Assembly (NCBI GenBank): GCA_038893995.1
Contig: JAWAQK010000047.1
Span: 1 to 19,928, forward strand
Direction of reading: 5' to 3'
Source: Candidatus Thorarchaeota archaeon
GTDB taxonomy: Archaea > Asgardarchaeota > Thorarchaeia > Thorarchaeales > Thorarchaeaceae
DNA length: 19,928 bases
The position numbers and the translations under genes were made by a program. Below the pieces are notes generated by a model that did not search any database, was not told the DNA's origin, and was given only the letters and a program-made list of their open reading frames with translations. Positions 1 through 19,928 of this stretch are shown here, piece after piece. How positions within the stretch are numbered: the stretch's first letter is position 1; every line of letters starts with the position of its first letter.

Positions 1-2
1 GT

Positions 3-1432: not shown

Positions 1433-1775
1433 GCATAGGTACTGGCGGGTACAGATTCAAGCACGGCATCCACGAGAGAGAGAGTCGTTGCGACAGAAGA
1501 CCTGGAGTGCAATCACGTTCTCAACCAGCTCCCTGGACCCTGTCCCACTCTCTCTCTGTCCCCTGTCGAGCGAATTCTAGTTATACCAACCAGTCGCTCG
1601 GTCAGCGGGTTCGTGACTCAGTTGGTCCTGCGCATGAGTGTCCCATATAGACACCTTCAAATCGCATTCCGTAGAGTGTCTTCCTGTCCTGTCCGTTGTT
1701 CTACTAGTCTGGTTCATGTAGATGTGACCGACCGTGAAGGACAGTGATCACTTGATTGGTGGCTGAACAGTTCAG

Positions 1776-4502: not shown

Positions 4503-4507
4503 GTTGG

Positions 4508-4545
4508 TGACGGGCTCATTGGATGTCTTAATTCCGAGCCCGTCA
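4508..4545 (+). terminator. Stem-loop immediately after the ppdK stop (terminator or 3' stabiliser)
   Basis: Perfect 10-bp inverted repeat TGACGGGCTC (4508-4517) / GAGCCCGTCA (4536-4545), 5 nt after the stop. No strong T-tract. Confidence 0.5.
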
Positions 4546-4747
4546 AGACCTAGACAAGGAGATAGACGAGTTCATCTCAGGATCGTGCCACGAACTCAAT
4601 CTCTACTATGCCATCTGTCACTATAATTCTACTCATGGAACAGTCTGTTCTGGTTATTGAACAGGCAATTCGTACTCATCGGTATGCTTTATTAGGCGCT
4701 TCCGGTCCGGCTCGACCAGCGAAGACACACCGAGAGGCCAAGAAGCA

Positions 4748-5695
4748 ATGAAGAGAATTCTTGTCACAGGTGCATACGGACAGATTGGCACCGAGCTGGT
4801 AACTGCACTGAGAAAGAAGTACGGCGGCGACAACGTACTCGCCACAGGTCGCAAGAAGCCCCCTGCCGTACTGACTGCCGATGGTCCTTACGAGCACCTT
4901 GACGTACTAGATTCCAACGAACTACACACCATCATTGTCAACCATGACATCAATGTGATCATCCACAATGCGAGCATCCTCTCAGCAGCAGGAGAGAAGA
5001 ATCCTCAGCTTGCATACAGGACGAACATGGACGGTGCGTACAATGTTCTGGAGGCCGCAAGGGAACTGAGTCTCGACACAGTACTGATCCCAAGTTCCAT
5101 CGCAGCATTTGGCCCGAGTACTCCGCGCCAGAACACGCCAAACGACGTCATCATGCGTCCCACAACGATGTATGGAGTCACTAAGGTTGCCATCGAGCTA
5201 CTTGGCGAATACTACAATACAAGATTTGGTGTGGATTTTCGATCCCTGCGGTATCCTGGAATCATCAGTTCCGAGGCCCTGCCGGGTGGTGGGACCACAG
5301 ACTACGCGGTAGAGATCTTCTACGAGGCCATCAAGCACAGGAAGTACAAGTGTTTCCTGGGTCCCAACACTCGACTACCAATGATGTACATGCCCGACTG
5401 TATCAAGAGCACCATTGATCTGATCGAGGCGGACGCGAAACGCCTCAAACACAGGACCTTCAACGTGACGGCGTTCAGCTTCACCCCGGCTGAGCTTGCT
5501 GCGGAGATAAAGAAACACATCAAGGACTTTGAGATAGCCTACGAGCCGGACTTCAGGCAGAAGATTGCAGACTCGTGGCCCGAGACAATTGATGACAGTG
5601 TTGCCCGTCAGGAGTGGGGCTGGAAGCCTGACTTCGACCTGGCGTCCATGACCGAAGACATGATAAGGGTGTTGTCCAAGCGGCTGATCAAGTAG
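4748..5695 (+). CDS. tdh: L-threonine 3-dehydrogenase (SDR / NAD-dependent epimerase family)
   Basis: TGAYGQIG Rossmann motif, PSSIAAFG, catalytic YGVTK, and family-diagnostic PGGGTTDYAV, LPMMYMPD and RQKIADSWP. Confidence 0.92.
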   Translation: MKRILVTGAYGQIGTELVTALRKKYGGDNVLATGRKKPPAVLTADGPYEHLDVLDSNELHTIIVNHDINVIIHNASILSAAGEKNPQLAYRTNMDGAYNVLEAARELSLDTVLIPSSIAAFGPSTPRQNTPNDVIMRPTTMYGVTKVAIELLGEYYNTRFGVDFRSLRYPGIISSEALPGGGTTDYAVEIFYEAIKHRKYKCFLGPNTRLPMMYMPDCIKSTIDLIEADAKRLKHRTFNVTAFSFTPAELAAEIKKHIKDFEIAYEPDFRQKIADSWPETIDDSVARQEWGWKPDFDLASMTEDMIRVLSKRLIK

Positions 5696-5761
5696 TGCTC
5701 GCCGGAACCCCCCTGGATACCACTCCAAGAACGCGGCCCACCAAAGTCGAGAGAGGCAACG

Positions 5762-7507
5762 ATGACACACCGATTGAACACAGCTGCACAGTACTCCACA
5801 TTCCTCCTATTGGTCATAGTGACAGTGTCTTCGTTCTATCTGTCCTGGGCCTGTGAACAGGGCCTGGGCTACTTGAATGTAGAACGTGTCTCACTCGAGA
5901 GATATCCTGGGCGGACTGTGGACTTTCTGGTCTACAGACCCATCTCTCCTGTCCACGAGGGCCCAATGCCCATCATACTGACGATTCACGGTCTGGCCGG
6001 CTCCAAGGAGGGTATGTACTCTTTCAACACCGAGCTAGCACGGCGTGATCTAGTGGTTGTGTCAGTTGACTTGCCGGGGCACGGAGACTCCGTTCTGCCT
6101 TTCGACATCCAGGAACTTGGACCGATTGCCGAAGACTGCTATGCCGCCCTGAGATATGTCCAGTCCAGCAGCATGATGATCGACAACACCTCATACGCGG
6201 TCCTGACACACTCGATCGGGGCGGAGATCGCGATCCTGTTGTCCCAATACCCGGTGAAACCAATGGGCTACGTATTCGTGGGCTGGGCGCCATCTGTGGA
6301 GACTCCTCCTGGCAATATGATGATTGCCATAGGCGTGGTCGATGAGATGGTCTCGGTGGAAGTGGCACTGGACGTAATTCGCAGGGGTACTGGTCTATCA
6401 TCTGTCGAGCCCGACGTGACATATGGTTCATTTGAGGACGGTACTGCCTACAGGGTTTCTGTAGCCCCAACCGAACATGTCTTTGCGGCAGTCGATCCTA
6501 TAGTGGTGTCGTCGTCCATCTGGTGGTTGACTCAGTGCGTACGTGGGTCTGACGAGAGCGACATTGTTCCCAGCAGCAGCAATATGGTGTTTCAGCTCAG
6601 GACAGTCGGTATGACGACAGGTGCATTTGCCCTCCTCGTGTCTGTCCTCCCACTGTCGACAATCTTCCGACGGCTCGGGAACAGGAGTGTGTTCTCGATG
6701 CGACTCGAGCTATACGTCAGTGGCGATCCAGTGCGGAGACTCATCATGTCTGCTGCTCTTGGCGTGGTCATGACTGTCGTATTTGTCGTGAACCAGGTGC
6801 TGAGTCTCTACTTGTTCTACTGGGGGCTCAACTGGCCCAGCTCTATGTTTGCTCCGGGTGTCATGGCATTCTTTGCCATCTTTCCTGCGTGTGGTATCTT
6901 TGTACTGCGCAGAATTGGAGTACTCAGACTCTCGAACGGTGCAAATGGGGAGAGCATATCGACCACAGAGGGTTCTGGGACCGCACGATCAATCATTATT
7001 GGCACAGCCGAGGGCATTGCCATCGTGGGGTCCATCATCATACTGTATTATGTTGCATCTGTGGTTGTCAGTCCTGGAGCAACAGTCACCCTCTATCTCG
7101 TCCGTTTCCCTAACACAGTCAGACTGGTGAACACCCTTCTGATGATTCCTGCGGCTCTGGTGTTTACCGTGTTTGACTGCATCTGGGTCAAATGCCTCCT
7201 CATGAGCAGAATGCGTTCTACAGGTCCTGAAGTGGAGGCCCGGGACACTGTGCTTGCCATTGCAAGTCGACTGCTCCCTGCCGCAGGAAGTGCAGCTCTG
7301 GCAGTCTTCCTCATCACAGTCGCTGGATACGTAACGGGACCACTGGTCTTGGTCGGGCTGTTGCTACTCACCGTCACTGTGATTTCATCCCTGACGACTC
7401 TCCTCTTTGTTTCCTCACCAGCCACGCTCCGGAATATCTTTGGCGAGGCCCTTGTGGCGTCGTTCCTGTTGTGCTGGGCAATCGTTTCATCTCTACCTCT
7501 CGTCTGA
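5762..7507 (+). CDS. Membrane-anchored alpha/beta hydrolase with a multi-TM C-terminal domain
   Basis: N-terminal TM segment, IHGLAGSKE, VDLPGHGDS, nucleophile elbow THSIG, candidate Asp (GVVDEMV) and His (TEHV), then about 8 hydrophobic helices. Confidence 0.85.
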   Translation: MTHRLNTAAQYSTFLLLVIVTVSSFYLSWACEQGLGYLNVERVSLERYPGRTVDFLVYRPISPVHEGPMPIILTIHGLAGSKEGMYSFNTELARRDLVVVSVDLPGHGDSVLPFDIQELGPIAEDCYAALRYVQSSSMMIDNTSYAVLTHSIGAEIAILLSQYPVKPMGYVFVGWAPSVETPPGNMMIAIGVVDEMVSVEVALDVIRRGTGLSSVEPDVTYGSFEDGTAYRVSVAPTEHVFAAVDPIVVSSSIWWLTQCVRGSDESDIVPSSSNMVFQLRTVGMTTGAFALLVSVLPLSTIFRRLGNRSVFSMRLELYVSGDPVRRLIMSAALGVVMTVVFVVNQVLSLYLFYWGLNWPSSMFAPGVMAFFAIFPACGIFVLRRIGVLRLSNGANGESISTTEGSGTARSIIIGTAEGIAIVGSIIILYYVASVVVSPGATVTLYLVRFPNTVRLVNTLLMIPAALVFTVFDCIWVKCLLMSRMRSTGPEVEARDTVLAIASRLLPAAGSAALAVFLITVAGYVTGPLVLVGLLLLTVTVISSLTTLLFVSSPATLRNIFGEALVASFLLCWAIVSSLPLV

Positions 7508-7882
7508 CATGTGCTGGATGCTGGTCGCGGGACCTGGTCGGCTAGACGAGGCCTGCTCTCATTGTGCTCTCGGAAACCCCACGCTGGTCACGTCAGACTG
7601 TCAGTCTGTTGTTGCCTATTGCATTCATCATGTGAAGTCGATCTGTGCAACGGCCAGAGCCGTCCAGACTACTCGGTGGCACAATCTTCGAGCGAGATAT
7701 CATGATCACTCGGTAGGACAATCACGTTGCCCACTGTTCTGATCAGAGCCAGCATCCCGGAATTCCATTCTGCCTCGATCGGGCTCGAACCAGCCTCAGC
7801 ACAATGATGAAACTGAGTACGTCTGAGGACACGGCCTGTGCAGACATCGATTGACAGAGGGCGTGAATGACCGATCCGGCTG

Positions 7883-8119
7883 CTATGAGGCCTTCAGAGC
7901 GTACAGGAGTTCATCTTCCTGTTCGCCGACGATCTCCACATTTCCCCATCTGAGCATGCCTATGAGGTTCCAGACGATGAGGTCCTTCGGCATCCCTGTG
8001 ACCTCAGCCAGTCTCGTCACTGTGCTGGGGCCGCCTCTCAGGGCCTCCTGTATCGAGGACCTCTGCTTCCGGACGTCCCCACGTCTCTGTGCAAAGAACC
8101 TGACAAACGTGTTGTTCAT
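7883..8119 (-). CDS. Small winged helix-turn-helix protein (78 aa), last gene of the hdr operon
   Basis: ATG at 8119 overlaps the mvhD stop (ATGA). IQEALRGGPSTVTRLAEVTGMPKDLIVWNLIGMLRWGNVE has a wHTH pattern followed by a wing hairpin. Confidence 0.8.
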   Translation of the reverse strand: MNNTFVRFFAQRRGDVRKQRSSIQEALRGGPSTVTRLAEVTGMPKDLIVWNLIGMLRWGNVEIVGEQEDELLYALKAS

Positions 8120-8559
8120 CTCCACACTCTCCTCATTGGACCGAGTCTCCTGACCTGCTCGGTGAACATCCTGACCCCGTCTGCAAATATCTGTGCCTCT
8201 GAGGCGCTCGCCCACTGAAGCCGTATCCGTCTGGGGTCAATACCAGCCTGCTCAATGGCAGACTCCAGCAGCGCCCAGCGGGCCCTCAGCTTGAGGTTCC
8301 CACTGGTGTAGTGACAGTCTCCAGGATGACAGCCAGAGACCAGCACACCGTCTGCGCCCATCTCCAGTGGTGCCAGTATGAAGTCCGGACTTATCCTCCC
8401 AGTGCAGTTGACACGGATGATCCGTGCATTTGGAGGATACTGTATCCGGCTCGTGCCAGCAAGGTCTGCACCAGCGTACGAGCACCAGTTGCAACAGAAG
8501 GCGACTATGCGCGGCTCCCACTTCTGCTGGTCATCTGAGCTCTTCTCTGGAGTTGTCAT
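8116..8559 (-). CDS. mvhD: [2Fe-2S] hydrogenase/Hdr adaptor subunit MvhD (FlpD family)
   Basis: EPRIVAFCCNWCSYAGADLAG, IRVNCTGRI, GADGVLVSGCHPGDCHY..GN, WASASE. ATG 8559 overlaps the upstream stop (ATGA) and follows a GGAGGTGG SD. Confidence 0.95.
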   Translation of the reverse strand: MTTPEKSSDDQQKWEPRIVAFCCNWCSYAGADLAGTSRIQYPPNARIIRVNCTGRISPDFILAPLEMGADGVLVSGCHPGDCHYTSGNLKLRARWALLESAIEQAGIDPRRIRLQWASASEAQIFADGVRMFTEQVRRLGPMRRVWR

Positions 8560-10310
8560 GACCCTCCACCTCCAGCAACGGCCGTCGGAGTGCATAGGAA
8601 TGCCTCCACCATGGCCATGATCTGCTGGTCTGTCGAGTGATACATCACAATTGCACTACTTGGACAGGCTGCTGCGCACGTACCACATCCGTGGCACTTG
8701 GCCTCTGTCACAAGGGCGACAGGTGGGTCTCTCGAATTGTCCATTGATATGGCACCGTACGGGCATGCGGTGACGCATGTCCTGCATGAGGAGCACAGCT
8801 CACTGATGACATGGGATACGGTTGACTCTATCTCCACCTCTCCCCTTGCCATGAGACCGACCGCCTTTGCCGCTGCTCCGCTGGCATCTATGACTGACTC
8901 GGAGGCGTTCTTGGCCGCCTGTGCAGCTCCGGCGATCATAACGCCCGCTGTGTGAGTCGTGAGCGGAGCCAGCTTGATGTGCTCAGGATTGAAGAACCCG
9001 TCTCCGCTACGAGTGAGACTGAAGAGTTTGGAAACATCTGCCGCGTCCGGAGGCGGTACCATTGCTGAGGCCAACACGAGCATGTCCGGTTCGTACATCA
9101 TGTCATCACCAGACAGCACATCGTGCCATGTGACCCTGATCTTGCCGCTCTTGGTGACAGTCACCTCCGGCTTGTTGTCCCTGGGGAATTTGCTGTATAT
9201 CACGTGCTTGGATCTTGCGAGTCTATAGAGCTCCTCATGTCCGCGGCCATATGTCCTGATGTCCTGGTAGAGTATCAGGACCTCATCGACTCTGTCTCGT
9301 AGGTCAGATGCTGCCTTTGCGACGGCAGAGCAGCAGTGTCTTGAACAGTGCTCATGTCCAGGCTTCCCTGGTTCCCTTGAGCCAACGCACCCGATGAATA
9401 CCAACTTCTTGACAGGTTTTCCATCACTTGGCCTCAAGAGATCCTCCCTCGGTCGTAGCTCCTGAAGCTCAGCAAGGGTGACTATATCCTTGGACTCGCC
9501 ATACCCATAGTAACCGTATGGCTTGAACGGCTCGAAGCCTGTCGCCACAATCACAGTGCCGACCTCGTAAGACTCCTCCTTTCCGGTCTTGAGATTCTTG
9601 ACCCTCGCGACGAAATTCCCGATATAGCCCTCAAATCCGACGACCTGACTGTCAGTCAGCACCTTGATGAGTGGATGTCTTGTCACGTTTCTCAGCAGAG
9701 GCGCTATCACTTGCCACCCCGACTCATCTGCTGGGAATAGGTGTGTCCATTTGGCCACATGTCCTCCCAGCTTGGACTGCCTCTCGACAAGGACTACTTC
9801 GAAACCCCTGTCGGCAATATCGCACGCGGCCCTCAGACCTGCGATCCCCCCGCCGACAACAAGTGTTCGGGGTAGGACCTTCACAGTCTTCACTGGTAGA
9901 TGCTCCAGTTGTGCCGCTCTAGCGACCGACATCCGTACCAGGTCGATAGCCTTCTCTGTGGCCTTCTCGGGCTCTCGCATGTGACACCACGAGACATGTT
10001 CTCTGAGGTTGACCTGTTCGAAGAGATATCGATTCAGTCCAGCCTCCTCCACCACGCGTCTGAAAGTAGGCTCATGCATTCTGGGTGAACAGCTGGCCAC
10101 TACGACACGGTTGAGATTCTTCTCTCTGACCTTCTCGCGTATCAATGCTTGACCTGCGTCAGAACACATGAACATCTCGTGTGTCGAGTACACAACGTTC
10201 GGGAAGGATTCGGCCGCCTTGGCCACTCTCTCCACGTCGACCGATCCTGCAATGTTGTGCCCGCAGTGACACACGAAGACACCAATCCTGGGTTCGGTAT
10301 TCTCAGCCAT
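8556..10310 (-). CDS. hdrA: HdrA-family protein (QmoB-like architecture): N-terminal Fe-S domain, FAD domain and C-terminal 2x[4Fe-4S]; lacks the inserted ferredoxin and the FPTxDCxxC motif
   Basis: RIGVFVCHCG, FMCS, VVVASCSPRMHE, NLREHVSW, VGGGIAG, CVGSR-x9-CSRHCC, CSSCRTCVTACPY and CHGCGTCAAACP. ATG 10310 overlaps the upstream TGA. Confidence 0.92.
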   Translation of the reverse strand: MAENTEPRIGVFVCHCGHNIAGSVDVERVAKAAESFPNVVYSTHEMFMCSDAGQALIREKVREKNLNRVVVASCSPRMHEPTFRRVVEEAGLNRYLFEQVNLREHVSWCHMREPEKATEKAIDLVRMSVARAAQLEHLPVKTVKVLPRTLVVGGGIAGLRAACDIADRGFEVVLVERQSKLGGHVAKWTHLFPADESGWQVIAPLLRNVTRHPLIKVLTDSQVVGFEGYIGNFVARVKNLKTGKEESYEVGTVIVATGFEPFKPYGYYGYGESKDIVTLAELQELRPREDLLRPSDGKPVKKLVFIGCVGSREPGKPGHEHCSRHCCSAVAKAASDLRDRVDEVLILYQDIRTYGRGHEELYRLARSKHVIYSKFPRDNKPEVTVTKSGKIRVTWHDVLSGDDMMYEPDMLVLASAMVPPPDAADVSKLFSLTRSGDGFFNPEHIKLAPLTTHTAGVMIAGAAQAAKNASESVIDASGAAAKAVGLMARGEVEIESTVSHVISELCSSCRTCVTACPYGAISMDNSRDPPVALVTEAKCHGCGTCAAACPSSAIVMYHSTDQQIMAMVEAFLCTPTAVAGGGGS

Positions 10311-11623
10311 CACTTCCGACCTCCTCTTGTAAGCACTATGGTTGCCTTCATAGCTGCTGCGCTTCCGGCCGTGACCGAGTCAGGTATGTCCTTTGGCCCG
10401 TCAGCGCACCCACATACAAAGATCCCGGGCACCTTGGTATCTACCGGTCCGAAGTAGTGATGCGCGACGTCTACATATCCGTCGTTCTTGATCGTGATGC
10501 CAAGTGATTCGGCCATCTTGCCGATGTCTTCAGGCGGCTGCAGACCTGGGCTGAGCACCAAGAGATCGTGAACCCTGTCAATTACCCTTGCGTTCTCGGT
10601 ATCCTCGACCTTGCAGTGTATCTTCCCAGTCTTCTCATCTCTACTGACCTCGGCCACCCTCCCTCTGAGGAACTTCACTCCAAAGCGGTTCTGGGCCATC
10701 TCGTAGAACTCCTCGAATCCCTTGCCGAAGGCACGGATGTCCGCGTAGTAGACTGTCACATCGGCATCAGGATGGTGTTCCTTGGCCATCACTGCATTCT
10801 TTATCCCGTACATGCAACACACTCGACTGCAATATGGGACATCCTTGTTGACATCACGTGCACCCACACACTGGACGAATCCTATGGAGCGTGGGATCTT
10901 GCCGTCACTCAGCCTGATGAGGTGCCCGTGGGTAGGCCCGGCGGCATTGATCAGTCTCTCGTACTCCATTGCGTTTATCACATCTGGGATCTTGCCGTAT
11001 CCGAGTCTGGGATACGCTCGCACGTCGAACAGTTTGTAACCTGTTGCAATCACTATTGCGCCAACCTTCAGTTCCAGCCTCTCGTCCTGCATGTCGAGAT
11101 CAATGGCATTTCGCTCGCAAACACTCATGCAACGTTTACAGCGAATACAGGCCCCCATGTCTATTGTGTATACGTTCGGCGTAGCCTGTGGGAAGGGAAC
11201 GTATATTGCCTTGCGGAACCCCAGGTTCTGGTCGAACTCGTTGGGAACCTCAACAGGACACTCGTCAGTGCAACGACCACAGCCTGCACAGGCCTTCTCG
11301 TTCACATATCGGGCCCTCTTTATGACTCTGGCAGTGAAGTCGCCGACCTTGCCGACAACGCTCTCGAGCTCGGAGTTCGTCAGAAGCGTTATGTTGGGGT
11401 TTCTTGCCACCTCACTCAGTTTTGGTGTGAGAATGCATGCAGAGCAGTCGAGTGTAGGAAAAGTCTTGTCAAGTGCGGCCATACGCCCACCTATCGAGGG
11501 GCTCTTCTCGACCAGATACACGCGAAAACCCTGCGAAGCTATGTCCAGTGCAGCCTGCATGCCGGCGACTCCTCCCCCAATCACTAGAGCCGCCCCAGTT
11601 TCCTTAGACTGTGGTGACGCCAT
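10310..11623 (-). CDS. hdrA: HdrA core subunit (437 aa): FAD domain plus inserted 2x[4Fe-4S] ferredoxin; no N-terminal domain and no C-terminal ferredoxin
   Basis: IGGGVAG, LDKTFPTLDCSACIL, CAGCGRCTDECP, CIRCKRCMSVC, QCVGARD-x7-CSRVCCMYGIK, GPKDIPDSV. GGAGGTGG SD. Confidence 0.95.
   Translation of the reverse strand: MASPQSKETGAALVIGGGVAGMQAALDIASQGFRVYLVEKSPSIGGRMAALDKTFPTLDCSACILTPKLSEVARNPNITLLTNSELESVVGKVGDFTARVIKRARYVNEKACAGCGRCTDECPVEVPNEFDQNLGFRKAIYVPFPQATPNVYTIDMGACIRCKRCMSVCERNAIDLDMQDERLELKVGAIVIATGYKLFDVRAYPRLGYGKIPDVINAMEYERLINAAGPTHGHLIRLSDGKIPRSIGFVQCVGARDVNKDVPYCSRVCCMYGIKNAVMAKEHHPDADVTVYYADIRAFGKGFEEFYEMAQNRFGVKFLRGRVAEVSRDEKTGKIHCKVEDTENARVIDRVHDLLVLSPGLQPPEDIGKMAESLGITIKNDGYVDVAHHYFGPVDTKVPGIFVCGCADGPKDIPDSVTAGSAAAMKATIVLTRGGRK
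10695..10972. repeat. Near-identical tract shared with 13700-13977 (copy 1)
   Basis: Manual ungapped alignment at offset 3005: 22 mismatches in 278 nt (~92%), with only 2 in 10797-10900. Confidence 0.9.
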
Positions 11624-12505
11624 TCAGACCACCTCCTGCAACGACTCAAAGACTCTATCGGGACTTATCTTGTTCAGGTAGGCCCCCAGGGCATTCTTGT
11701 CGACTCCCAATGCTGGACCGAGGAACTGTGGAAGAGTCAGGACTGGAACTCGGTCCTTGGGATCAAAGCCCTCCTCAAACTGCACCTGAGTCAGCTGTAT
11801 GTCGCAGAAGACACAGGCCGTGACTATACCGTCAGCCCTCTCGTTTCTGACGTTCTGAATCTTCTCCATGCCTATCTTCGCAGCAAGGGAAGGATCCATT
11901 GCAAGCATTGGGCCGCCACAGCACTTTGTCTTGCCGACATAGTTGACTGGCGTCGCTCCGGCCAACTCTATGATCCTGTCTATTATCGTCGGGTTCTCTG
12001 GATCGTCCACGTGAACTATCTCGTAAGGTCTGGTCACATGACAACCGTAGTGGGCTGCAAGCCGCAGTCTCTTCGGATAGGGTCTTACGATCGCCTCTCT
12101 GAGCGCATCGTAGCCGATATCTTCGTGGAACACCTGCAGTAGGTGCTTTACCTCTGATGTCCCAGTGTATTCTAGTCCCTCTTCGGCAAGGATGTCATTG
12201 ACCTCTGCACGAAGTATTCTGTCACGGTCCAACATTTCCTTGACCATCTTCAGCGAACCGGAGCAAGCCCCACAGATGGCCAGAATGTCCAGACCTGCCT
12301 GCTCGGCCATCGCAATTATCCTTCCGCTCATCGCGGCAAAGGCCTGTCTGTTGATAGACTCAAGATACTGGGCGCCACAACAGTTCACGTTGTCCATGTC
12401 TACCACACGGATGCCAAGCTTCTCGAGTACTATCTTCACGGAGGCCTCATAGGCTGGGTGTCTCACTGGTACAGTACATCCTGTGTAGAGCATGAATTCC
12501 TTCAA
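11624..12505 (-). CDS. hdrB: Heterodisulfide reductase subunit B
   Basis: Two intact CCG domains: YTGC..NCCG..CGAC and HYGCH..KCCGG..ACVFC. The TTG start overlaps the hdrC stop (TTGA). Confidence 0.95.
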   Translation of the reverse strand: MKEFMLYTGCTVPVRHPAYEASVKIVLEKLGIRVVDMDNVNCCGAQYLESINRQAFAAMSGRIIAMAEQAGLDILAICGACSGSLKMVKEMLDRDRILRAEVNDILAEEGLEYTGTSEVKHLLQVFHEDIGYDALREAIVRPYPKRLRLAAHYGCHVTRPYEIVHVDDPENPTIIDRIIELAGATPVNYVGKTKCCGGPMLAMDPSLAAKIGMEKIQNVRNERADGIVTACVFCDIQLTQVQFEEGFDPKDRVPVLTLPQFLGPALGVDKNALGAYLNKISPDRVFESLQEVV

Positions 12506-13026
12506 TGAGTCGTGCCTCCCTCGACGAATCTCTGTTTGACTCTCTTACTGAATTCGTTGTTCCAGTTGATCTTGGTCCGGAGTCCGAGCGCCTCACGGTC
12601 CTCCTCAATGAAGTCTGTATAGGCGTCCTTGAGTAGCCATCCGTCTCGAAAGAGGACCTCGACGGTGTTGGCAAAGGCCTTTGGGATGCGGTTCTCACTG
12701 GCTGCGATCTCTCTGACAGCATGGAATATGTCCGCGAGGCTGACGCCCTCTTGGCATCTCTCCTCACAGAGTCTGCAGGTCATGCACAGCCACGGGAGCT
12801 CGCTGTTGAGGACTTCCTCCCTCTCGCCCAACAGGATCTTCTGTATGAGCTTCCTGGGTCTGTACTTGTCTTCATAGCTAGCAACCATGCAGCTGGCAGT
12901 GCATATGCCGCACTGGACACACTTGTTGATGTCTTCTCCGCCGGGTACTGATGCTATCTCGCGGGAGAATTCAGAACTGGGTACATGTGCATGAAGTGTA
13001 CCTTTCTGGCTATTGGTCTTACCCAT
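12502..13026 (-). CDS. hdrC: Heterodisulfide reductase subunit C
   Basis: KCVQCGICTASC, PRKLI, WLCMTCRLCEERC. Directly upstream of hdrB. Confidence 0.93.
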   Translation of the reverse strand: MGKTNSQKGTLHAHVPSSEFSREIASVPGGEDINKCVQCGICTASCMVASYEDKYRPRKLIQKILLGEREEVLNSELPWLCMTCRLCEERCQEGVSLADIFHAVREIAASENRIPKAFANTVEVLFRDGWLLKDAYTDFIEEDREALGLRTKINWNNEFSKRVKQRFVEGGTTH

Positions 13027-13066
13027 GACTACTCACTACTCCGGGAACAGCCCACAGGTAGAAACC

Positions 13067-13147
13067 CTGACCGATGTTGGTCATGGTTACAGACTGTAAT
13101 TAAACCTATACATATCGCACAGATGCTCACACGACCAACATGGTCAG
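13067..13147 (-). promoter_or_regulatory. Putative internal promoter for hdrC-hdrB-hdrA-hdrA-mvhD-wHTH with palindromic operator candidates
   Basis: Minus-strand TTTAATTA (13104-13097) about 70 nt upstream of the hdrC ATG. It overlaps the palindrome TTACAG-A-CTGTAA (13087-13099) and is flanked by inverted copies of CTGACC(G)ATGTTGGTC. Confidence 0.55.
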
Positions 13148-13305
13148 CACGAACCGTGTGTTCGATGGGCAAGGTACTCTGACAACCGTCCAGCGGATCT
13201 TCTTGTGGCCACTGAAGCAGTGCACACATGCTGGTCGATCCGCGGCCGTGCATCAACGACACCTTGCCATCATCCGCAACGCATCGCTTGCTGAAGCACC
13301 ACGTT

Positions 13306-16062
13306 TTATGTCTTGCCTTTCGACTCTTTTCCAGCCAGCATGATCGTGGCGCGCATCGCAGCGGCACTTCCTGCTGACACAGAGTCCGGAATATCTTTGG
13401 GTCCATCTGCACACCCGCAGACGAACACACCTGGAACTCTGGTGTCCACTGGCGTCAGTACCTGATCCGCAACGTCGACATAACCATCAACCGCGAGCTC
13501 CATGCCTAGTTCCACAGCCATGTCCTCGAGACCCTCTGGCGGCTGTATCCCTGGGCTGACAACCACCAGGTCGTGTTCGACATCGTTCACCGTGTGTGCC
13601 TCTGTATCCTCCACACGGAGGATGAGGTTTCCAGTGTCTTTTGCCTCCCTCACCTCCGCCACTCTTCCCCTGACGAACTTGACACCGAACCGTGTGCGTG
13701 CCATCTCGTAGAACTCCTCGAATCCCTTGCCAAACGCCCGTATGTCCGCGTAGTAGACTGTAACATCGGCGTCGGGGTGGTGTTCCTTGGCCATCACTGC
13801 GTTCTTTATCCCGTACATGCAGCACACTCGACTGCAATATGGGACATCCTTGTTGACATCACGTGCACCTACACACTGGACGAATCCTATGGAGCGTGGG
13901 ATCTTACCATCACTGAGTCTGATCAGATGTCCACGGGTAGGGCCTGCGGCATTGATCAGTCTCTCGTACTCCATTGCATGGATGACGTTCGGGTACTTTC
14001 CGTATCCAAGCTGGGTATAGCGGCTCACGTCGAACAGCCTGTAGCCCGTTGCGATGACGATCGCGCCGACGTTGAGCTCGAGCGACTGATCAGTCATGCC
14101 GTGGTCGATAGCGTTTCTCTGACACGCCTGAGCACATCGACCACACTCACAACACACAGCACAATTGAGACATCTCTCAGCCTCAGCGGCAGCGGTCTCC
14201 TCAGAGAATCCCAGTTCGACCTCGCTGAAGGTGCGCTTCCTGCTCTTCACTCCCTGTTTTGGCATGACGGCCCTCTTGGCAAATGGGATATGCGTCTTGT
14301 CGACCTCATACGACTGCACCCTGTGTCGATGCGGAGTCTCCGCCCGTGAACGTAGCTCTCCGCGAAGATACCTGTCTATGGCAATTGCTGCATCCCTGCC
14401 CTGCCCCACTGCCTTGACGACGGTTAGGGGACCTGTGACGACATCCCCTCCTGCAAACACGCCCGGAATGTTGGTCGCCATTGTGGCAGGGTCGACAATC
14501 ACTGTTCCAAACTCTGTACATTCACACTGGGTCTGTACTCCCTGTGGGTCTGTGGACTGGCCGACTGCTACGATGAGTGTGTCGATTGCCAGGGTGAACT
14601 CGGAGCCAGGTATCGGCACTGGTCTCCTCCTACCTGAGTGGTCTGGCTCGCCAAGCCTCATCTTGATGCATCTGATTCCGCTCACGTGACCACCGTGCGA
14701 CAGGACCTCAATCGGAGCAGTGAGCATCATGAACCGGACGCCCTCCTCCTTTGCGTCCTCTACCTCTGACGGAATTGCAGGGATCTCAACGTTTGACCTA
14801 CGGTAGACCACAGTGACCTCCTGTGCGCCAAGTCTGATGGCCACACGTGCTGCGTCGACAGCTGCATCCCCTCCACCCACAACAGCAACTCTACGTCCAA
14901 CTGTGACCGTTTCCCCGTTCGAGATCTTCTCCAGGAATGGTATCGAGTGAATGACTCCTTCGACATCCTCGCCCTTGATGCCCAACTTATTACTGGCCGA
15001 GGCTCCAGTGCCAATGAATACTGCCTTGAATCCCTTCTTGAGCAGATCCCTGACCGATCTCACTGGCGAGTTGGTCTTGATGGTCACGCCCATGTCCTCG
15101 ATGCGTCTTATCTCCTCGTCGAGGATGTTACGTGGAAGTCTGTACTCTGGGATTGCGTATCTCATCAGTCCGCCGGGCTTTGGTTTTGCCTCAAACACGG
15201 TGACTGGATAGCCCATTCTTGCCAGATGATATGCACAACTCAGGCCGGCCGGACCTGCCCCGATGACCGCAACCCTGTCACTCTTGTCTATCTTGGGGGT
15301 CACTGGCTTTCCTAGCTTATGCTCTCGTTCATAGTCTGCGAGGAATCTGTGCAGGTTCCTGATGCTGACGCTAGCGTCATGCATGCCTCTCTCGCACTCA
15401 GCCTCACAGAAACTGATACATACTCGTCCCAGTACCCCTGGAAATGGGATAGACTCTCTCAAGATCTCCAGGGCAGCTGCATAGTCGCCCTGCTTCATCA
15501 TCGTTATGAACCCTTGAGCATTCACATGAGCCGGGCATGTTGCCCGACAGGCCGGCTCGCCCTTCTTCTCGATAGTGTACACGTTGGGCGTGGCCTGTGG
15601 GAACGGTGAATATATGGCCTTCCGGAACCCTATCCCCTGATCGAACTCGCTGGGGACCTCAACTGGGCACGCTGCCACACAATCGCCGCAGCCGGAGCAT
15701 TTACTCTCGTCCACATAGCGTGCCTTGCGTCTGATCTTCACCGTGAAGTTGCCAGGTTCTCCCGTCACCGACTTGACCTCGGAATAAGTCAGCAGCTCGA
15801 TATTGGGATGTCTTGCAGTTTCACTGAGGCGGGGCGTGAGTATACAAGCAGAGCAGTCCAGCGTCGGGAATGTCTTGTCAATCATGGCCATCCTCCCGCC
15901 TATGGATGGAGACTGCTCCAACAGATACACCTTGAACCCCTGATTTGCTATATCGAGTGCCGCCTGCATGCCGGCCACTCCACCGCCGATGACCATTGCA
16001 GCAGGCGTTTCGCGGAGACCCTCACTCATCGATCTCTGGTTCGTGCGACTGGTAACCGTCAT
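13306..16062 (-). CDS. hdrA: HdrL-type large HdrA: HdrA core with a ~470-aa GltD/NfnB-like FAD/NAD(P)H module inserted in the ferredoxin domain
   Basis: HdrA motifs (IGGGVAG, FPTLDCSAC, CSGCGDCVAACP, CSRVCCMYGIK) interrupted at ~15570-14161 by PACRATCP, GRVCISFCEAEC, IGAGPAG, YAIPEYRLP, VGGGDAAVD, VYRRS, FAGGD and EAERCLNC. Start may be 16062 (AGGAG SD) or the next Met (16029). Confidence 0.92.
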   Translation of the reverse strand: MTVTSRTNQRSMSEGLRETPAAMVIGGGVAGMQAALDIANQGFKVYLLEQSPSIGGRMAMIDKTFPTLDCSACILTPRLSETARHPNIELLTYSEVKSVTGEPGNFTVKIRRKARYVDESKCSGCGDCVAACPVEVPSEFDQGIGFRKAIYSPFPQATPNVYTIEKKGEPACRATCPAHVNAQGFITMMKQGDYAAALEILRESIPFPGVLGRVCISFCEAECERGMHDASVSIRNLHRFLADYEREHKLGKPVTPKIDKSDRVAVIGAGPAGLSCAYHLARMGYPVTVFEAKPKPGGLMRYAIPEYRLPRNILDEEIRRIEDMGVTIKTNSPVRSVRDLLKKGFKAVFIGTGASASNKLGIKGEDVEGVIHSIPFLEKISNGETVTVGRRVAVVGGGDAAVDAARVAIRLGAQEVTVVYRRSNVEIPAIPSEVEDAKEEGVRFMMLTAPIEVLSHGGHVSGIRCIKMRLGEPDHSGRRRPVPIPGSEFTLAIDTLIVAVGQSTDPQGVQTQCECTEFGTVIVDPATMATNIPGVFAGGDVVTGPLTVVKAVGQGRDAAIAIDRYLRGELRSRAETPHRHRVQSYEVDKTHIPFAKRAVMPKQGVKSRKRTFSEVELGFSEETAAAEAERCLNCAVCCECGRCAQACQRNAIDHGMTDQSLELNVGAIVIATGYRLFDVSRYTQLGYGKYPNVIHAMEYERLINAAGPTRGHLIRLSDGKIPRSIGFVQCVGARDVNKDVPYCSRVCCMYGIKNAVMAKEHHPDADVTVYYADIRAFGKGFEEFYEMARTRFGVKFVRGRVAEVREAKDTGNLILRVEDTEAHTVNDVEHDLVVVSPGIQPPEGLEDMAVELGMELAVDGYVDVADQVLTPVDTRVPGVFVCGCADGPKDIPDSVSAGSAAAMRATIMLAGKESKGKT
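13700..13977. repeat. Near-identical tract shared with 10695-10972 (copy 2)
   Basis: Same alignment as copy 1. Confidence 0.9.
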
Positions 16063-16173
16063 ATTGGCCTACTCCTGGACCCTATCAGACTGCCGTCCGT
16101 GCACATTGGGTGCCCCAATGGACCTGTCAGAACGGACATCGATTATCTGGCATCCTATACAGTGATGCAACCG

Positions 16174-16181
16174 ATATTAAA
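16174..16181 (-). promoter_or_regulatory. Putative TATA box for hdrL
   Basis: Minus-strand TTTAATAT, about 110 nt upstream of the ATG and the most TATA-like AT-rich stretch of this intergenic region. Confidence 0.5.
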
Positions 16182-16410
16182 CTGATATGGTGGCCCGGCG
16201 TTAGTCGAGGTTCAGGGGGGCACACTGACGAAAACGGCCCTGGAGACTTGTAGGGATGCCCGAGTTGTTGTCATGCCAGCCCGAAGATGGTGCAGCCTGA
16301 CTGTTTCCGACGCCCACCTGTGCTACTCCTGCCGGTACGACACGACCTCCGCTCCCTGAACTAGATCGAGTCCGTAGTAGTGGTCGCACTGTGAGACATG
16401 CGAGCCAGTC

Positions 16411-16442
16411 AAAGAAATGGTGACCCAAGTTTCAGATGGGTC
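16411..16442 (-). terminator. Putative terminator of the NifB/NifX transcript
   Basis: Minus strand GACCCA-N9-TGGGTC hairpin followed by ACCATTTCTTT, about 35 nt after the stop at 16478. Confidence 0.4.
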
Positions 16443-16477
16443 GGTATTCTGGTCTCGTATCGGAGAAGAACCCGGTG

Positions 16478-16843
16478 TCACCTGTGATGTGCCTCGTGGC
16501 ATCCCTCGGTCACCGCGTTCAGAGACCCGCTCATGTATGCGGAGATGATCTCCTCAATAGATGTTGAGCGGGCCTGGAGTACCGATATACCCGCTCTGCG
16601 AAATAGCTCAAGTCCTCTGGGTCCTATTCCTGACACGATCACGGCGTCGGGTCGCATTTGCATTACATTGTCATGGGTGAATCCGTGACCACCAAGGTGA
16701 CTGCTTCTGTTCTCGTGAACGGAAGTCTTGACCTCCCCCTTACTGTCATCGATCTCGACCAGTACCAAGTAGGGGGCGCGTCCAAAGTGAGCACCGAGCT
16801 TCTTGCCCTGTTGGTCGTCCGATGGAATAACGATTCTCCTCAA
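16478..16843 (-). CDS. NifB/NifX (COG1433, dinitrogenase FeMo-cofactor family) protein, His-rich
   Basis: TTG start at 16843 after an AGGAGG SD, 1 nt after the upstream stop. RIVIPS, AHFGRAPY, DAVIVSGIGPRG, AGI; HLGGHGFTH loop and CHEAHHR tail. Confidence 0.88.
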   Translation of the reverse strand: MRRIVIPSDDQQGKKLGAHFGRAPYLVLVEIDDSKGEVKTSVHENRSSHLGGHGFTHDNVMQMRPDAVIVSGIGPRGLELFRRAGISVLQARSTSIEEIISAYMSGSLNAVTEGCHEAHHR

Positions 16844-16844
16844 T

Positions 16845-17279
16845 CTATCGAGCGCCTCCTTGAGACCAACGACCATGTCCCACTGCAGGTCTGGTTCCTC
16901 GGCCATGCCCAGCTCCTCCGCAGTTTCCCTGACCGAGTGTCGCAGTACTGATGGGCCTCGCCTCACCCCTGATGTATCGGTCGACCGCCTCTCTGACAGT
17001 ACTTGCGGAAGCATCGAGAACTTGGATGCCTGCAGCTCTGAGTGCGCTCATGGCATGGGGCCCAAAGTTCCCAGTCAACACACCATCGACGTGATGAGAC
17101 ACCACAAGTTGAGCTGCCTGAATCCCAGCACCCCCGACTGCCTGCGCCCCCGGGTCAGCAACTGCAGTAGTGTCATCTGTGTCAGTATCCACGATCACAG
17201 ACCAACTGCAACGTCCGAATCTTGGATCGTCTCCCAAGTTCAGAGTGTCTCCAGTCGCTGACACACACAACCTTGTCAT
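16845..17279 (-). CDS. NifB/NifX (COG1433, orange-protein-like) protein with Gly-rich tail
   Basis: ATG 17279 after a GAGGTG SD. DPRFGRC, GGAGIQAAQ, VLTGNFGPHA..L.AAGI, TVREAV; tail GQGNCGGAGHGRG. Confidence 0.9.
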   Translation of the reverse strand: MTRLCVSATGDTLNLGDDPRFGRCSWSVIVDTDTDDTTAVADPGAQAVGGAGIQAAQLVVSHHVDGVLTGNFGPHAMSALRAAGIQVLDASASTVREAVDRYIRGEARPISTATLGQGNCGGAGHGRGTRPAVGHGRWSQGGAR

Positions 17280-17309
17280 GTTCACACACCTCGTATCAGG
17301 TTCATATTT

Positions 17310-17348
17310 TGAATCAATATTCACAAACGTTATCGGGATCCATTTAAA
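17310..17348 (-). promoter_or_regulatory. Promoter of the NifB/NifX pair: TATA box plus 14-bp palindromic operator
   Basis: Minus-strand TTTAAAT (17348-17342). TGAATCAATATTCA (17310-17323) lies over the expected start site and has an identical copy at 18889-18902. Confidence 0.7.
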
Positions 17349-17440
17349 CCATCGCATAGTAACACAGTATCACGACAGACGAGCCGCCTCCCACTCGGGC
17401 TGATTGCGTTTTTCATGGGCTCTGGCCCGCCTCTGTGATT

Positions 17441-17776
17441 CTACACATACTCGCTGTCCACATCTCTGTGATCCTTGCGCCCCAGCACATAGCTACCACC
17501 TTCGATACGGATCATCCATCCGTTCACGAGGGCGGTAGCGACCTTCTGTCTTGCAGAATTGAGAGTCCTATTGAACGTGGGCTGGCTGACTTCCATTCTC
17601 TCGGATGCATCCCTCTGGTCCAGTCCCTCGAGGTCCGAAAGCCTCAGTGCCTCTAGTTCATCCACAGTGAGCACGACCTCCTCCAGGCATCTGGCCGGGA
17701 CGCCTGCTGGCTTGAAGACTGTTGTAGGAGGCATACGACTCACAAGACGACACCTTCTTCTTCGGGGCATGGCCAT
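17441..17776 (-). CDS. DUF134 (UPF0251) HTH DNA-binding protein
   Basis: MPRRRRCR, FKPAG, LTVDELEALRLSDLEGLDQ..A...MEVSQPTF.R.L.SARQKVA.ALV.G..I.IEGG is the DUF134 signature. Confidence 0.92.
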   Translation of the reverse strand: MAMPRRRRCRLVSRMPPTTVFKPAGVPARCLEEVVLTVDELEALRLSDLEGLDQRDASERMEVSQPTFNRTLNSARQKVATALVNGWMIRIEGGSYVLGRKDHRDVDSEYV

Positions 17777-17805
17777 ATCTCCATCTCATCTAGAGCAATA
17801 AAGGT

Positions 17806-18003
17806 TCACGGAAATGCGAACCAGCTGTCTGCGGGTACCCGCTTCAAGACATCATCCCACATCTCACGCAGGAGTGCCGTTAGGTCACTCTCAGGTGCAT
17901 CGAGGTCACAGTCGGCGAAGACACTCCTTGCAGATAGCACAGCAAATGCCGCACAGTGTCGACTTACCGGTCCCTCCCCCGATGCAATGGCCACTATCAA
18001 CAA
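17806..18003 (-). pseudogene. Relic of a MinD-superfamily P-loop ATPase (COG1149-like): frameshifted Walker A and large internal deletion
   Basis: Reads IVAIASG, with GGTGKSTL in a shifted frame (17977-17954), then AAFAVL..VFADCDLDAP joined directly to the C-terminal-like ESDLTALLREMW. GGTGA SD before TTG 18003. Confidence 0.75.
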
Positions 18004-18032
18004 AGTACTCTCACCCGAGATCGACATGTGGG

Positions 18033-18845
18033 TCAGAGGCCGATGGATTCGGATATTCTCCTACACAGCTCGGCAAACGACTTGGCTGACTCCGAGTCAG
18101 GCTGGCCTATGACAAACGGGGTGCCCTCGTCAGTCAGCCTTGATATTGATGGATCCATTGGTATAGAACCGAGATACGGTATGCCATAGTCTCTCGCGGC
18201 TCGCTCCACTGCTCCCTCACCCATCAGTCGATACCTGGCACCACACTTCGGGCAGACGAACTCGCCCATGTTCTCGACGACACCCAGTACTCGGACCCCC
18301 ATTCGTTGGGTGAGCTGAATGGCCCTCCTTGCTCCGAGTACGGCAACCTCTTGCGGAGTGGACACTATCAGAGTCCCATCGACTGATGGTATCAACTGAA
18401 GGATGCTCAGGATCTCGTCCCCGGTCCCGGGTGGCAGATCAACGACGAGCAGGTCCAAGTCTCCCCACTCCACATCGCTCAGGAATTGACTGATTGCCTT
18501 TGCGACCAGCGGCCCCCTCCATGCGACTGCGTCGTCTGCGTTTCTCAGGAGGAATCCCATGCTCATGACCTTCACATCGAGAGGCCCATTGACTGGAAGA
18601 ATTGACTTTTCTAGGACCTCGGGGTGTTGACCCTGCAGGCCCAATATCTTGGGGATGGTGGGTCCGTAGATGTCCACGTCGAGTATTCCAGACTTCACGT
18701 CCGACTTGGCAAATGCCATCGCCAGATTGGCGGATACGGTACTCTTCCCTACTCCCCCCTTGCCAGACAGCACCACTACTTTGTGCCTAACTCGCTTCAT
18801 CCGCTCGCGGACCTCAGTCGGGATCATGCTCTCCCTGTCCTGCAT
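18033..18845 (-). CDS. mrp: Mrp/NBP35 (ApbC) Fe-S cluster carrier ATPase
   Basis: VLSGKGGVGKS, DVDIYGP, WRGP, DLPPGTGDE, STPQ, ENM..F.CPKCG. ATG 18845 preferred over TTG 18896, which lies inside the operator. Confidence 0.95.
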   Translation of the reverse strand: MQDRESMIPTEVRERMKRVRHKVVVLSGKGGVGKSTVSANLAMAFAKSDVKSGILDVDIYGPTIPKILGLQGQHPEVLEKSILPVNGPLDVKVMSMGFLLRNADDAVAWRGPLVAKAISQFLSDVEWGDLDLLVVDLPPGTGDEILSILQLIPSVDGTLIVSTPQEVAVLGARRAIQLTQRMGVRVLGVVENMGEFVCPKCGARYRLMGEGAVERAARDYGIPYLGSIPMDPSISRLTDEGTPFVIGQPDSESAKSFAELCRRISESIGL

Positions 18846-18888
18846 AGTATTCGTTCTGCCACCTGTCGGATCTAGACCACACGTAATC

Positions 18889-18908
18889 TGAATCAATATT
18901 CATTTAAG
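18889..18908 (-). promoter_or_regulatory. mrp promoter: TATA-like box plus 14-bp palindromic operator
   Basis: TGAATCAATATTCA (18889-18902) abuts minus-strand CTTAAAT (18908-18902). Confidence 0.7.
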
Positions 18909-19123
18909 GATGGTGATATATGTGAATTCAACAAACCTCGATGTACCACTCCATACCAGGACACACTGGGTCACAGTGAACAGGTACCCATGCAGTGGAC
19001 GACGTGCGTCGTCCTTTGCTCACTGACAGTGAGTCTGGCACGTGTTTCTGGCCTGCACAGATAGATCCTGACTCCAACTATTGACCATCGTCGTTTCCTA
19101 GAGTCAGGCACCGACCTGAGCTC

Positions 19124-19858
19124 TCATGTTGGTCCATCTGGTCTGTTCTTTTCGGCCTCAGCGTATCTTCTCCTCAGAAACTCGGGCATCGACCATCCAA
19201 ACCAGGCATGGAGGACCGTGACCATCATGAAGGTCATTACGACCAGGAAGAACAGGTTACCGGTCACTGGATCAGAACCGAACAGGGAAGATGCCATGAA
19301 CAGGAAGAAGGTAGCGATGTACAGCAATGAAAAGCGACCCACGAGGATGAATTTCATCCTCGTCAGGAGCCGGGATGCCTTAGGAGCAGTTTCTCTACAT
19401 GCAAGGTACAGTGGAACATACATGCCAAGTGTCAGGATTGCAAAGGGTAGAGCCATCGTTGCAGGAGGGCCGTAGGCGATCTCCTCTCCAAGTATGGCCC
19501 TCAGTAGGAAGCCGCTCAGAAAGGAAATGGTTGGCAGATACCACCTGTTTCTCGGTCTGAATAGACCCACATAGAAGTAGGCCATTAGAGGATACGACGC
19601 AATGAAGAAGACAAAGAAGATGTAGACCAGAAGGTCAGCAGTGGCATTTGCGCCGACTGCTATTACTATGTACTCTGCGGAGACCTCAAAGATGAGTCCG
19701 ATACCCATCAACATGATCGATAGCGCAAGCGATGCTGTGAGCGGATCTCGGTCCTTTCTCCAGACCATGAGAAGTCTGAGAGATGCATAGATGAACAGTA
19801 GCGCCGATAGTGTGTTTCCCACTGCCGCAACTATGGTAGTGTTCGGATTGAGAACCAT
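19124..19858 (-). CDS. Hypothetical 7-TM membrane protein
   Basis: GAGGTGG SD before ATG 19858. About seven hydrophobic helices ending in FGWSMPEFLRR. Confidence 0.8.
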   Translation of the reverse strand: MVLNPNTTIVAAVGNTLSALLFIYASLRLLMVWRKDRDPLTASLALSIMLMGIGLIFEVSAEYIVIAVGANATADLLVYIFFVFFIASYPLMAYFYVGLFRPRNRWYLPTISFLSGFLLRAILGEEIAYGPPATMALPFAILTLGMYVPLYLACRETAPKASRLLTRMKFILVGRFSLLYIATFFLFMASSLFGSDPVTGNLFFLVVMTFMMVTVLHAWFGWSMPEFLRRRYAEAEKNRPDGPT

Positions 19859-19870
19859 CAAACATCCACC

Positions 19871-19928
19871 TCATATCTTGTCAAAGAACCTCATGGCCCT
19901 AACAGCCTCGTTCTCGTCTGACACCACA
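19871..19928 (-). CDS. 3' end of an upstream gene (truncated by the window)
   Basis: Open frame VVSDENEAVRAMRFFDKI-stop, whose TGA overlaps the SD of the 7TM gene. Confidence 0.5.
   Translation of the reverse strand, partial: VVSDENEAVRAMRFFDKI

Follow-up and report, generated by a model that had tools for sequence, protein, structure and literature searches.

The window analysed here is a stretch of 19,928 nucleotides (contig JAWAQK010000047.1, positions 1-19,928 of the forward strand) from GCA_038893995.1, a metagenome-assembled genome (MAG) of a Candidatus Thorarchaeota archaeon (2.33 Mb, 91% complete). Read as open reading frames (ORFs), it holds six Hdr-type genes, all on the minus strand: hdrL, hdrC, hdrB, hdrA-S, hdrA-N/C and mvhD. 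Three of the products are HdrA paralogs, here called L (HdrL, 918 aa), S (437 aa) and N/C (584 aa). Comparison with solved structures and with orthologs suggests that the locus probably encodes an asymmetric Hdr complex, in which N/C and MvhD form an arm that serves either S or L as alternative bifurcating cores. The components of this proposal differ in confidence: a heterodimer of N/C with S is very likely, and use of the same N/C by HdrL in the source organism is somewhat favoured.

Three HdrA paralogs with reciprocal domain losses

A preliminary description of this DNA held that no paralog is a full HdrA and that the losses are reciprocal. Alignment to the solved methanogen HdrA chains of 8rvu and 5odc confirms this, with hidden Markov model matches of N/C and S at E 1e-138 to 1e-147. 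N/C has the N-terminal Fe-S domain, an FAD-type domain with the HA4 cluster cysteines and a C-terminal 2x[4Fe-4S] ferredoxin. It aligns to residues 10-243 and 317-657 of the 8rvu chain, skipping the inserted ferredoxin domain, with FPADESGWQ in place of the FPTLDCSMC of HdrA; the inserted ferredoxin and the DCxxC motif are both missing, as had been described. S aligns to residues 143-568 of 5odc only. It keeps DCSAC, in which C63 aligns with HdrA Cys197, and its E222 and K275 correspond to E356 and K409. HdrL has an FAD domain, DCSAC at C70/C73 and a split inserted ferredoxin. The earlier reading, that DCSAC and the inserted ferredoxin are present and that the N-terminal domain and the C-terminal ferredoxin are absent, holds for both S and HdrL.

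The statement that these two copies differ mainly by a flavin/NAD(P)H module also held. Outside a 465-aa insert they are 74-75% identical, over HdrL residues 17-165 and 632-909, which flank it. The insert sits between the two cluster motifs of the inserted ferredoxin, C122xxCxxCxxxC and C637xxCxxCxxxC, and its best solved relatives are the GltD-like, NADPH-binding modules of 9bov_A, 9n5u_A (NfnA of NfnABC), 8oh5_C and NfnB 4ylf_B (E 7e-92). Its nucleotide site carries GGGDAA and VYRRS motifs, which we take to be of the NADPH type. For their own type III HdrA, Lyu et al. argued for NADH (PMC12054007).

Each paralog lacks at least two of the elements required of a canonical HdrA (type I, class A1), and the NCBIfam HdrA models score the three at 562-588 bits against a cut-off of 1100. 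The full domain set is reached only by N/C combined with S or L. N/C and S have the make-up of a complementary pair (classes A6 + A5/A12), being adjacent genes of which one encodes the N-terminal domain without Cys197 and the other Cys197 without the N-terminal domain. They are separate genes with a stop/start overlap rather than a fused double HdrA. By domain content HdrL is an HdrL / type III HdrA (class A9), with a GltD/NfnB-like module within the inserted ferredoxin of an A6-type core.

Conservation of the diagnostic residues

Conservation was assessed in 46 N/C, 27 S and 24 L proteins and in six full-length NfnB-bearing proteins (F), all from Thorarchaeota loci. Cys194 and Cys197 are invariant in S (27/27), L (24/24) and F (6/6), and neither is ever a Cys in the 46 N/C proteins. 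The four N-terminal-domain cysteines are 100% conserved in N/C and F, and N/C, S and L all retain the cysteines of the HA4 cluster. The reciprocal domain pattern thus recurs throughout these orthologs and is not chance, with no exception at the diagnostic cysteines in any of the N/C, S or L proteins.

The DCxxC region of the N/C orthologs is hypervariable, with Q, D, E, K, T, V or A at the Cys197 position. This bears on an alternative in which there is no heterodimer, each paralog is homodimeric, and N/C either uses a non-Cys ligand to complete its N-terminal cluster or leaves it three-coordinate. We consider this very improbable. Asp, Glu or Gln does stand at the Cys197 position in 37 of the 46 N/C proteins, and HdrA-like cores reportedly homodimerise (6tjr). 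Hypervariability, however, is unlike the behaviour of a ligand, and an N/C homodimer would have no low-potential exit, just as an S homodimer would have no MvhD-side arm. Gene arrangement adds further points against homodimers, as given below.

E356 and K409 show no variation among the S, L and F proteins. The N/C proteins have Q (29), E (16) or H (1) at the E356 position and keep K409 in 38 of 46. These residues have been used to distinguish bifurcating from non-bifurcating HdrA flavins (PMC12054007, PMC9430772), and their conservation in S and L would place the bifurcating flavin in one or the other of these cores.

The orthologous loci (64-78% identity) all come from Candidatus Thorarchaeota or Promethearchaeota MAGs. 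The next-best matches, at 36-39% identity, are Desulfobacterota clusters of the form mvhD-S-N/C-hdrC. The bacterial loci L115-L148 (Desulfobacterota and other MAGs) show a conserved order mvhD, S-type (~430 aa), N/C-type (~640 aa), hdrC that is widespread in bacteria, and DCxxC occurs only in the short HdrA copy. The F proteins (1120-1143 aa) combine the N-terminal domain, DCxxC and both ferredoxin domains with an NfnB insert. Their Thorarchaeota loci (L083:17950-, L090:15220-, L101:619-, L104:2874-, L109:2848-, L111:5743-) carry their own divergent hdrC'B' (~30% identity), and the HA4 motif in all six reads GC, against CC elsewhere (Cys403 to Gly).

S and L as one core with or without an insert

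Without the insert, S and L group in one clade (Shimodaira-Hasegawa-like approximate likelihood-ratio test, SH-aLRT, 99), apart from the F type/full-length proteins and from the bacterial S proteins. Among the 437 positions of S, 216 are at least 85% conserved in both S and L, and a single one of these discriminates the two, namely position 160 at the border of the insert. The window's S is as similar to L proteins as to other S proteins in every 40-residue stretch. Over its residues 221-320 it is 97-100% identical to its own HdrL (100% over 241-300), compared with 83-87% to orthologs. At the DNA level, positions 10644-10943 in hdrA-S and 13649-13948 in hdrL are 88% identical over 300 nt. This local similarity suggests past gene conversion or local concerted evolution between the two paralogs. 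As judged from their sequences, S and L appear to be the same protein with or without an NfnB-type insert, and would represent interchangeable versions of one core.

Gene order, co-occurrence and fusions in relatives

Related loci are of three kinds. Kind I, the window's type, reads L-C-B-S-N/C-D, where D is mvhD, and comprises 13 loci. Kind II has no HdrL (C-B-S-N/C-D), and kind III has no S (L-C-B-N/C-D, C-B-L-N/C-D or L-N/C-D). In the kind III variants HdrL occupies the place of S, and in L107 hdrL overlaps the start of N/C just as S does in the window. On the N/C tree the kind I and kind III copies are intermixed: six copies of kind I and five of kind III share one clade (SH-aLRT 99), and a kind III N/C is nested among kind I copies with branch lengths <0.1. 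No separate N/C clades specialised for S or for L were found on this tree, the backbone of which is unresolved.

Among 24 genomes of the family, N/C is present in exactly 20, each with S and/or L (20/20), and absent from the four with neither. These genomes are kin, and the counts are descriptive, with no statistical test attached. S alone accompanies N/C in G001, G016, G022 and G023, and L alone in G015 (95% complete) and G017. Both S and L occur with one N/C in genomes including G004, G006, G010, G012 and G019 (93-98% complete), and with two N/C in G003, G007, G008, G013, G014 and G020. In some genomes the S system and the L system lie in different loci, and each locus has an N/C, HdrBC and MvhD of its own. 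In G011 (L151:8861-10207 with L058; G011:C15), S comes after a full-length HdrA with the NfnB insert and the mvhD of that HdrA, and N/C does not follow it; a single N/C ortholog was found in this genome, ~10 kb away on the same strand, in a C-B-L-N/C-D cluster.

Natural fusions join the same modules. The source genome encodes, on a contig other than the window's, a 1162-aa S::N/C::MvhD fusion (L150:1620-5108), and another Asgard family (G032:C26) encodes a 1648-aa L::N/C::MvhD protein as a single ORF with the NfnB insert (L149:4982-9928). Each carries DCxxC in its first module alone and the CxCG N-terminal domain in its second alone, and the modules stand in the same order as the window's genes. 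The fusions' keeping of this order, the tight coupling of the separate genes and the fact that N/C never occurs without S or L in the genomes checked all argue against the homodimer alternative raised above.

The fusions also bear on whether HdrL is part of the system. Only S might pair with N/C, with HdrL a separate enzyme, either a homodimer or bound to another HdrA-like partner, that independently feeds NADPH electrons to HdrBC or ferredoxin and is no more than a neighbour of the operon. Such an arrangement would suit the 279-nt spacer with its own TATA-like box between hdrL and hdrC..mvhD, the translational coupling of S, N/C and mvhD but not of hdrL, and the genomes that keep the S and L systems as separate complete loci. 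We nevertheless regard it as unlikely. Where a locus has no S, N/C has no neighbour with DCxxC other than HdrL, and the L::N/C::MvhD fusion exists. Both DCSAC cysteines are invariant in 24/24 L proteins, including those from S-containing loci, while the same positions drift in N/C, and no residue outside the insert sets L apart from S. In addition, five good genomes with the window's layout lack any other N/C ortholog.

A proposed asymmetric complex with exchangeable cores

From these comparisons we propose that the six genes would yield an asymmetric, hydrogenase-less Hdr-type flavin/iron-sulfur complex built from halves. N/C and MvhD would form a mobile arm made up of the N-terminal cluster domain, the C-terminal ferredoxin domain and the [2Fe-2S] adaptor, and the N/C flavin site is probably structural. 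The core, S or L, would supply the bifurcating FAD and the HA4 cluster leading to HdrCB, the disulfide-reducing end. From it would also come the inserted ferredoxin, through which the low-potential electron exits, and the DCxxC cysteine, which would complete the arm's cluster or touch it. In canonical HdrA, the FAD', HA4' and HA5' served by the arm belong to the partner protomer (PMC12350162). Since N/C and MvhD hold the arm parts, and S and L the FAD', HA4', HA5'/HA6' and CxxC parts, a heterodimer of N/C with either core would retain one complete electron track and lose the other. Two fused proteins described below, BamE and the HdrA of Moorella, offer experimental precedents for this reading.

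In the S form, the low-potential electron would leave via the inserted ferredoxin. In the L form, this exit would be wired into the GltD/NfnB-type module, with its FAD and 2x[4Fe-4S], and so to or from NADP(H). Pairing of N/C with either core would give two enzyme forms, ferredoxin- or NADP(H)-coupled, that share the arm, HdrBC and MvhD. The earlier proposal that the 584-aa subunit plus MvhD pairs with the 437-aa or the 918-aa subunit finds comparative support in the replacement of S by L, the fusions, the co-occurrence and the likeness of S and L. N/C would require a partner with DCxxC, and both S and L are suited to be one. The heterodimer idea itself is not new. Physical pairing, the identity of the bifurcating flavin, the direction of flow, the thiol/disulfide substrate, the donor to MvhD and regulation are all inferred here.

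Several considerations weigh against this proposal. The minimal sHdrA (6tjr) is said to dimerise without an N-terminal domain, which makes S:S, L:L or S:L dimers conceivable. A single N/C gene facing two partner genes means unbalanced stoichiometry should all of them be expressed at the same level, and in a genome of 91% completeness a second N/C could be unassembled. N/C keeps the HA4 cysteines and, in the window, K409, and its flavin may not be inert. Kinship among the genomes means that the co-occurrence counts overstate the support. Finally, the case for pairing in the source organism itself is a comparative one.

Promoters, spacer and regulation

Because the host is an archaeon, promoters were sought as A/T-rich boxes and not by a bacterial promoter/terminator scan. 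Only two all-A/T octamers occur in the whole window, both upstream of minus-strand hdr genes (Table 1). Under independent base composition ~33 would be expected (0.45^8 x window length), and A/T runs are therefore strongly avoided elsewhere in the window. The octamers resemble archaeal TATA boxes, and in the source genome they are compatible with hdrL being transcribed apart from hdrC..mvhD.

Among relatives, the hdrL-hdrC spacer is bimodal, at 17-20 nt or 228-284 nt. In five of the 13 kind I loci (L072, L073, L074, L076 and L102) hdrL ends 17-20 nt before hdrC, which implies a single operon there. The long spacers are not conserved in sequence, and spacer DNA aligns only within a close trio. 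A reading frame is open across the whole spacer of the window (13029-13430, minus strand) and also in four relatives with 279-284-nt spacers. A small gene at this place was rejected as coding, since the peptide is not conserved relative to the nearest relatives and the spacer DNA is unalignable outside the close trio.

These observations bear on how the two forms might be used. In a regulated subunit exchange, one arm with HdrBC would be loaded with S or L, redirecting the low-potential electron between the ferredoxin and NADPH pools; we hold such a switch to be possible but doubtful. Alternatively, both heterodimers may form constitutively, side by side or in one larger assembly, so that the cell would have ferredoxin- and NADP(H)-coupled activity simultaneously, a reading that we entertain without favouring it outright. 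The tight operons in five of the 13 loci of the same type and the lack of spacer conservation between the window and its nearest relatives speak for constitutive formation. On the other side, one of the only two all-A/T octamers of the 19.9-kb window lies in the spacer, at a distance from hdrC that would suit a promoter, and spacers of ~279 nt recur in the window's own clade. The idea of separate promoters that let the cell switch between isoforms is thus a hypothesis: two boxes would fit it, while five of the 13 sister loci are tightly joined. Constitutive coexistence of both forms is at least as likely as a regulated switch.

Features of the locus and its surroundings

Table 1. Positions of the Hdr-type genes and associated features in the window.
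Feature	Position	Strand	Description
TATA-like octamer TTTAATAT	16174..16181	-	~112 nt upstream of hdrL ATG; putative promoter
hdrL	13306..16062	-	918 aa; S-type HdrA core plus NADP(H)/FAD/2x[4Fe-4S] module
GltD/NfnB-like insert	14173..15567	-	HdrL residues 166-630; Pfam Fer4_20 + Pyr_redox_2
hdrL-hdrC spacer	13027..13305	-	279 nt; contains the second TATA-like octamer
TATA-like octamer TTTAATTA	13097-13104	-	71-78 nt upstream of hdrC ATG; putative promoter
hdrC	12502..13026	-	174 aa; two [4Fe-4S] motifs
hdrB	11624..12505	-	293 aa; two CCG domains (PF02754, two stretches), five Cys each
hdrA-S	10310..11623	-	437 aa; FAD domain, HA4 cluster cysteines, inserted ferredoxin; neither terminal domain
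DCSAC codons of hdrA-S	11435..11449	-	C60, C63; alignment to 5odc_A
hdrA-N/C	8556..10310	-	584 aa from ATG 10310; 585 aa from GTG 10313
Degenerate loop FPADESGWQ of hdrA-N/C	9711..9737	-	alignment to solved HdrA
mvhD	8116..8559	-	147 aa from ATG 8559; PF02662 at E 1e-51, profile positions 1-123

The genes from hdrC to mvhD are translationally coupled. hdrC and hdrB overlap by 4 nt, and the following junctions read TGA-ATG (hdrB/S), TGATG (S/N/C) and ATGA (N/C/mvhD), with GGAGGTG-like motifs preceding all three. HdrB and HdrC have the make-up of a disulfide-reducing module, and a FlpD/MvhD domain is encoded straight after hdrA; mvhD relatives measure 147-149 aa. Scores against the CoB-CoM equivalog models lie under the cut-offs, at 89 bits against 160 for HdrC (TIGR03290) and 240 bits against 345 for HdrB (TIGR03288), so that the substrate need not be CoM-S-S-CoB.

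The Hdr locus contains no hydrogenase or formate dehydrogenase genes and no MetFV, and the window has neither qmoC nor apr genes, whose products (QmoC and APS reductase) are the associates of the HdrA-like pair QmoA/QmoB. [NiFe]-hydrogenase large-subunit genes are present elsewhere in the source MAG. Further HdrA forms in the same MAG are two S::N/C fusions, two canonical HdrAs and a second complementary pair, of 421 and 720 aa on contig C55. This pair was first taken for QmoAB, but it carries a fused MvhD.

Upstream of hdrL (16478-18896, minus strand) lie two overlapping NifX/NafY-like ORFs (PF02579), a DUF134 regulator-like gene and an Mrp/NUBPL-type P-loop ATPase. The flanking genes (PPDK, an epimerase, a hydrolase, the two NifX-like genes, DUF134 and the Mrp-type ATPase) were considered as members of the system and rejected, since none is kept beside hdr in 79 related loci. 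The module is accordingly delimited as hdrL..mvhD.

Significance and comparison with known systems

Electron bifurcation of the HdrA type has a central place in the energy conservation of anaerobes, and it is debated which flavin bifurcates, how the arm moves and what role the CxxC motif plays. An arm and a core as separate proteins, with an otherwise identical core available with and without an NADPH module, would be clean reagents for such questions of mechanism and for tests of the role of the inserted-ferredoxin exit. The arrangement also gives the little-known redox metabolism of Asgard archaea a concrete feature that spans the lineage; these organisms are uncultured, and the evidence is comparative. 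If true, regulated exchange would provide these relatives of the eukaryotic host lineage with an inbuilt switch for redox balancing that resembles Nfn.

Split and heterodimeric HdrA have already been published, and one arm shared by two cores appears to be undescribed: in the literature searched, we found neither one arm gene with two alternative cores, nor an S/L replacement series, nor an Asgard treatment. For Thorarchaeota, counts of multiple and of fused HdrA genes have been published (PMC11237513). A heterodimeric HdrA was proposed for anaerobic methanotrophic archaea (ANME) from the complementarity of Cys197 and the N-terminal domain in tandem and fused genes, in a paper that also describes the NfnB insertion in HdrA (Chadwick et al. 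2022, PMC9012536). In the tandem ANME genes HdrA5/6 and 12/13 (classes A6, A12), as here, the neighbour has Cys197 without the N-terminal domain, and a symmetry-breaking heterodimer was proposed from that pattern. The present host, by contrast, is a non-methane-cycling Asgard archaeon, and one N/C is encoded with two alternative Cys197-bearing partners. The sections consulted of PMC9012536 and PMC12054007 contained no proposal of partner exchange between ANME HdrA pairs. Lyu et al. (2025) assign these parts to classes A6, A12 and type III A9 and report A9 from gene clusters that contain several hdrA genes whose function is unclear (PMC12054007).

The name HdrL dates from 2009 (PMC2702500), and the protein has been detected in S. 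fumaroxidans proteomes (PMC5947623). Like the window's protein, HdrL1-3 of D. autotrophicum (PMC2702500), HdrL of the S. fumaroxidans HdrABC/HdrL system (PMC5947623) and class A9 / ANME-1 HdrA9-11 carry a GltD/NfnB-like module of ~465-500 aa inside the inserted ferredoxin. They are likewise HdrAs without terminal domains, with genes adjoining hdrBC and mvhD. What differs in the Thorarchaeota family is that HdrL has an insert-less twin, S, and that the two replace each other beside the same partner gene.

Fused versions of the same halves are found in the MetFV-HdrABC-MvhD complex of Moorella thermoacetica (HdrA of 162.8 kDa) and in Sporomusa ovata (HdrA of 101 kDa) (PMC9430772). Their N-terminal half is a TrxR-like core, GltD-interrupted in Moorella and without GltD in Sporomusa, and their C-terminal half is N/C-like, without the inserted ferredoxin; the Moorella HdrA oxidises NADH (PMC9430772). 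These are, however, single polypeptides, with one form per organism and tied to methylene-tetrahydrofolate reductase, whereas the window has separate genes and both cores in one locus.

BamE of class II benzoyl-CoA reductase is a fused HdrA dimer in which electron cryomicroscopy places the bifurcating FAD in module 1 (Lys near N5) and a structural FAD in module 2 (bioRxiv 10.64898/2026.04.10.717634). Its MvhD-like adaptor sits on a rotating arm, and its Cys59-Cys62 pair, to which C60/C63 of S can be compared, is approached by a shuttle cluster (bioRxiv 10.64898/2026.04.10.717634). BamE differs in being fused and domain-permuted and in passing low-potential electrons to a tungsten enzyme, and it has no NADP(H) module and no alternative core. 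The methanogen (HdrABC-MvhAGD)2 and Fdh/Elp-Hdr complexes (5odc, 8rvu, 7bkb; PMC12350162) have the same cofactor set and wiring, and N/C and S taken together contain every HdrA domain. Those complexes are homodimers with two complete electron tracks, whereas in the complex predicted from the window only one track could be complete.

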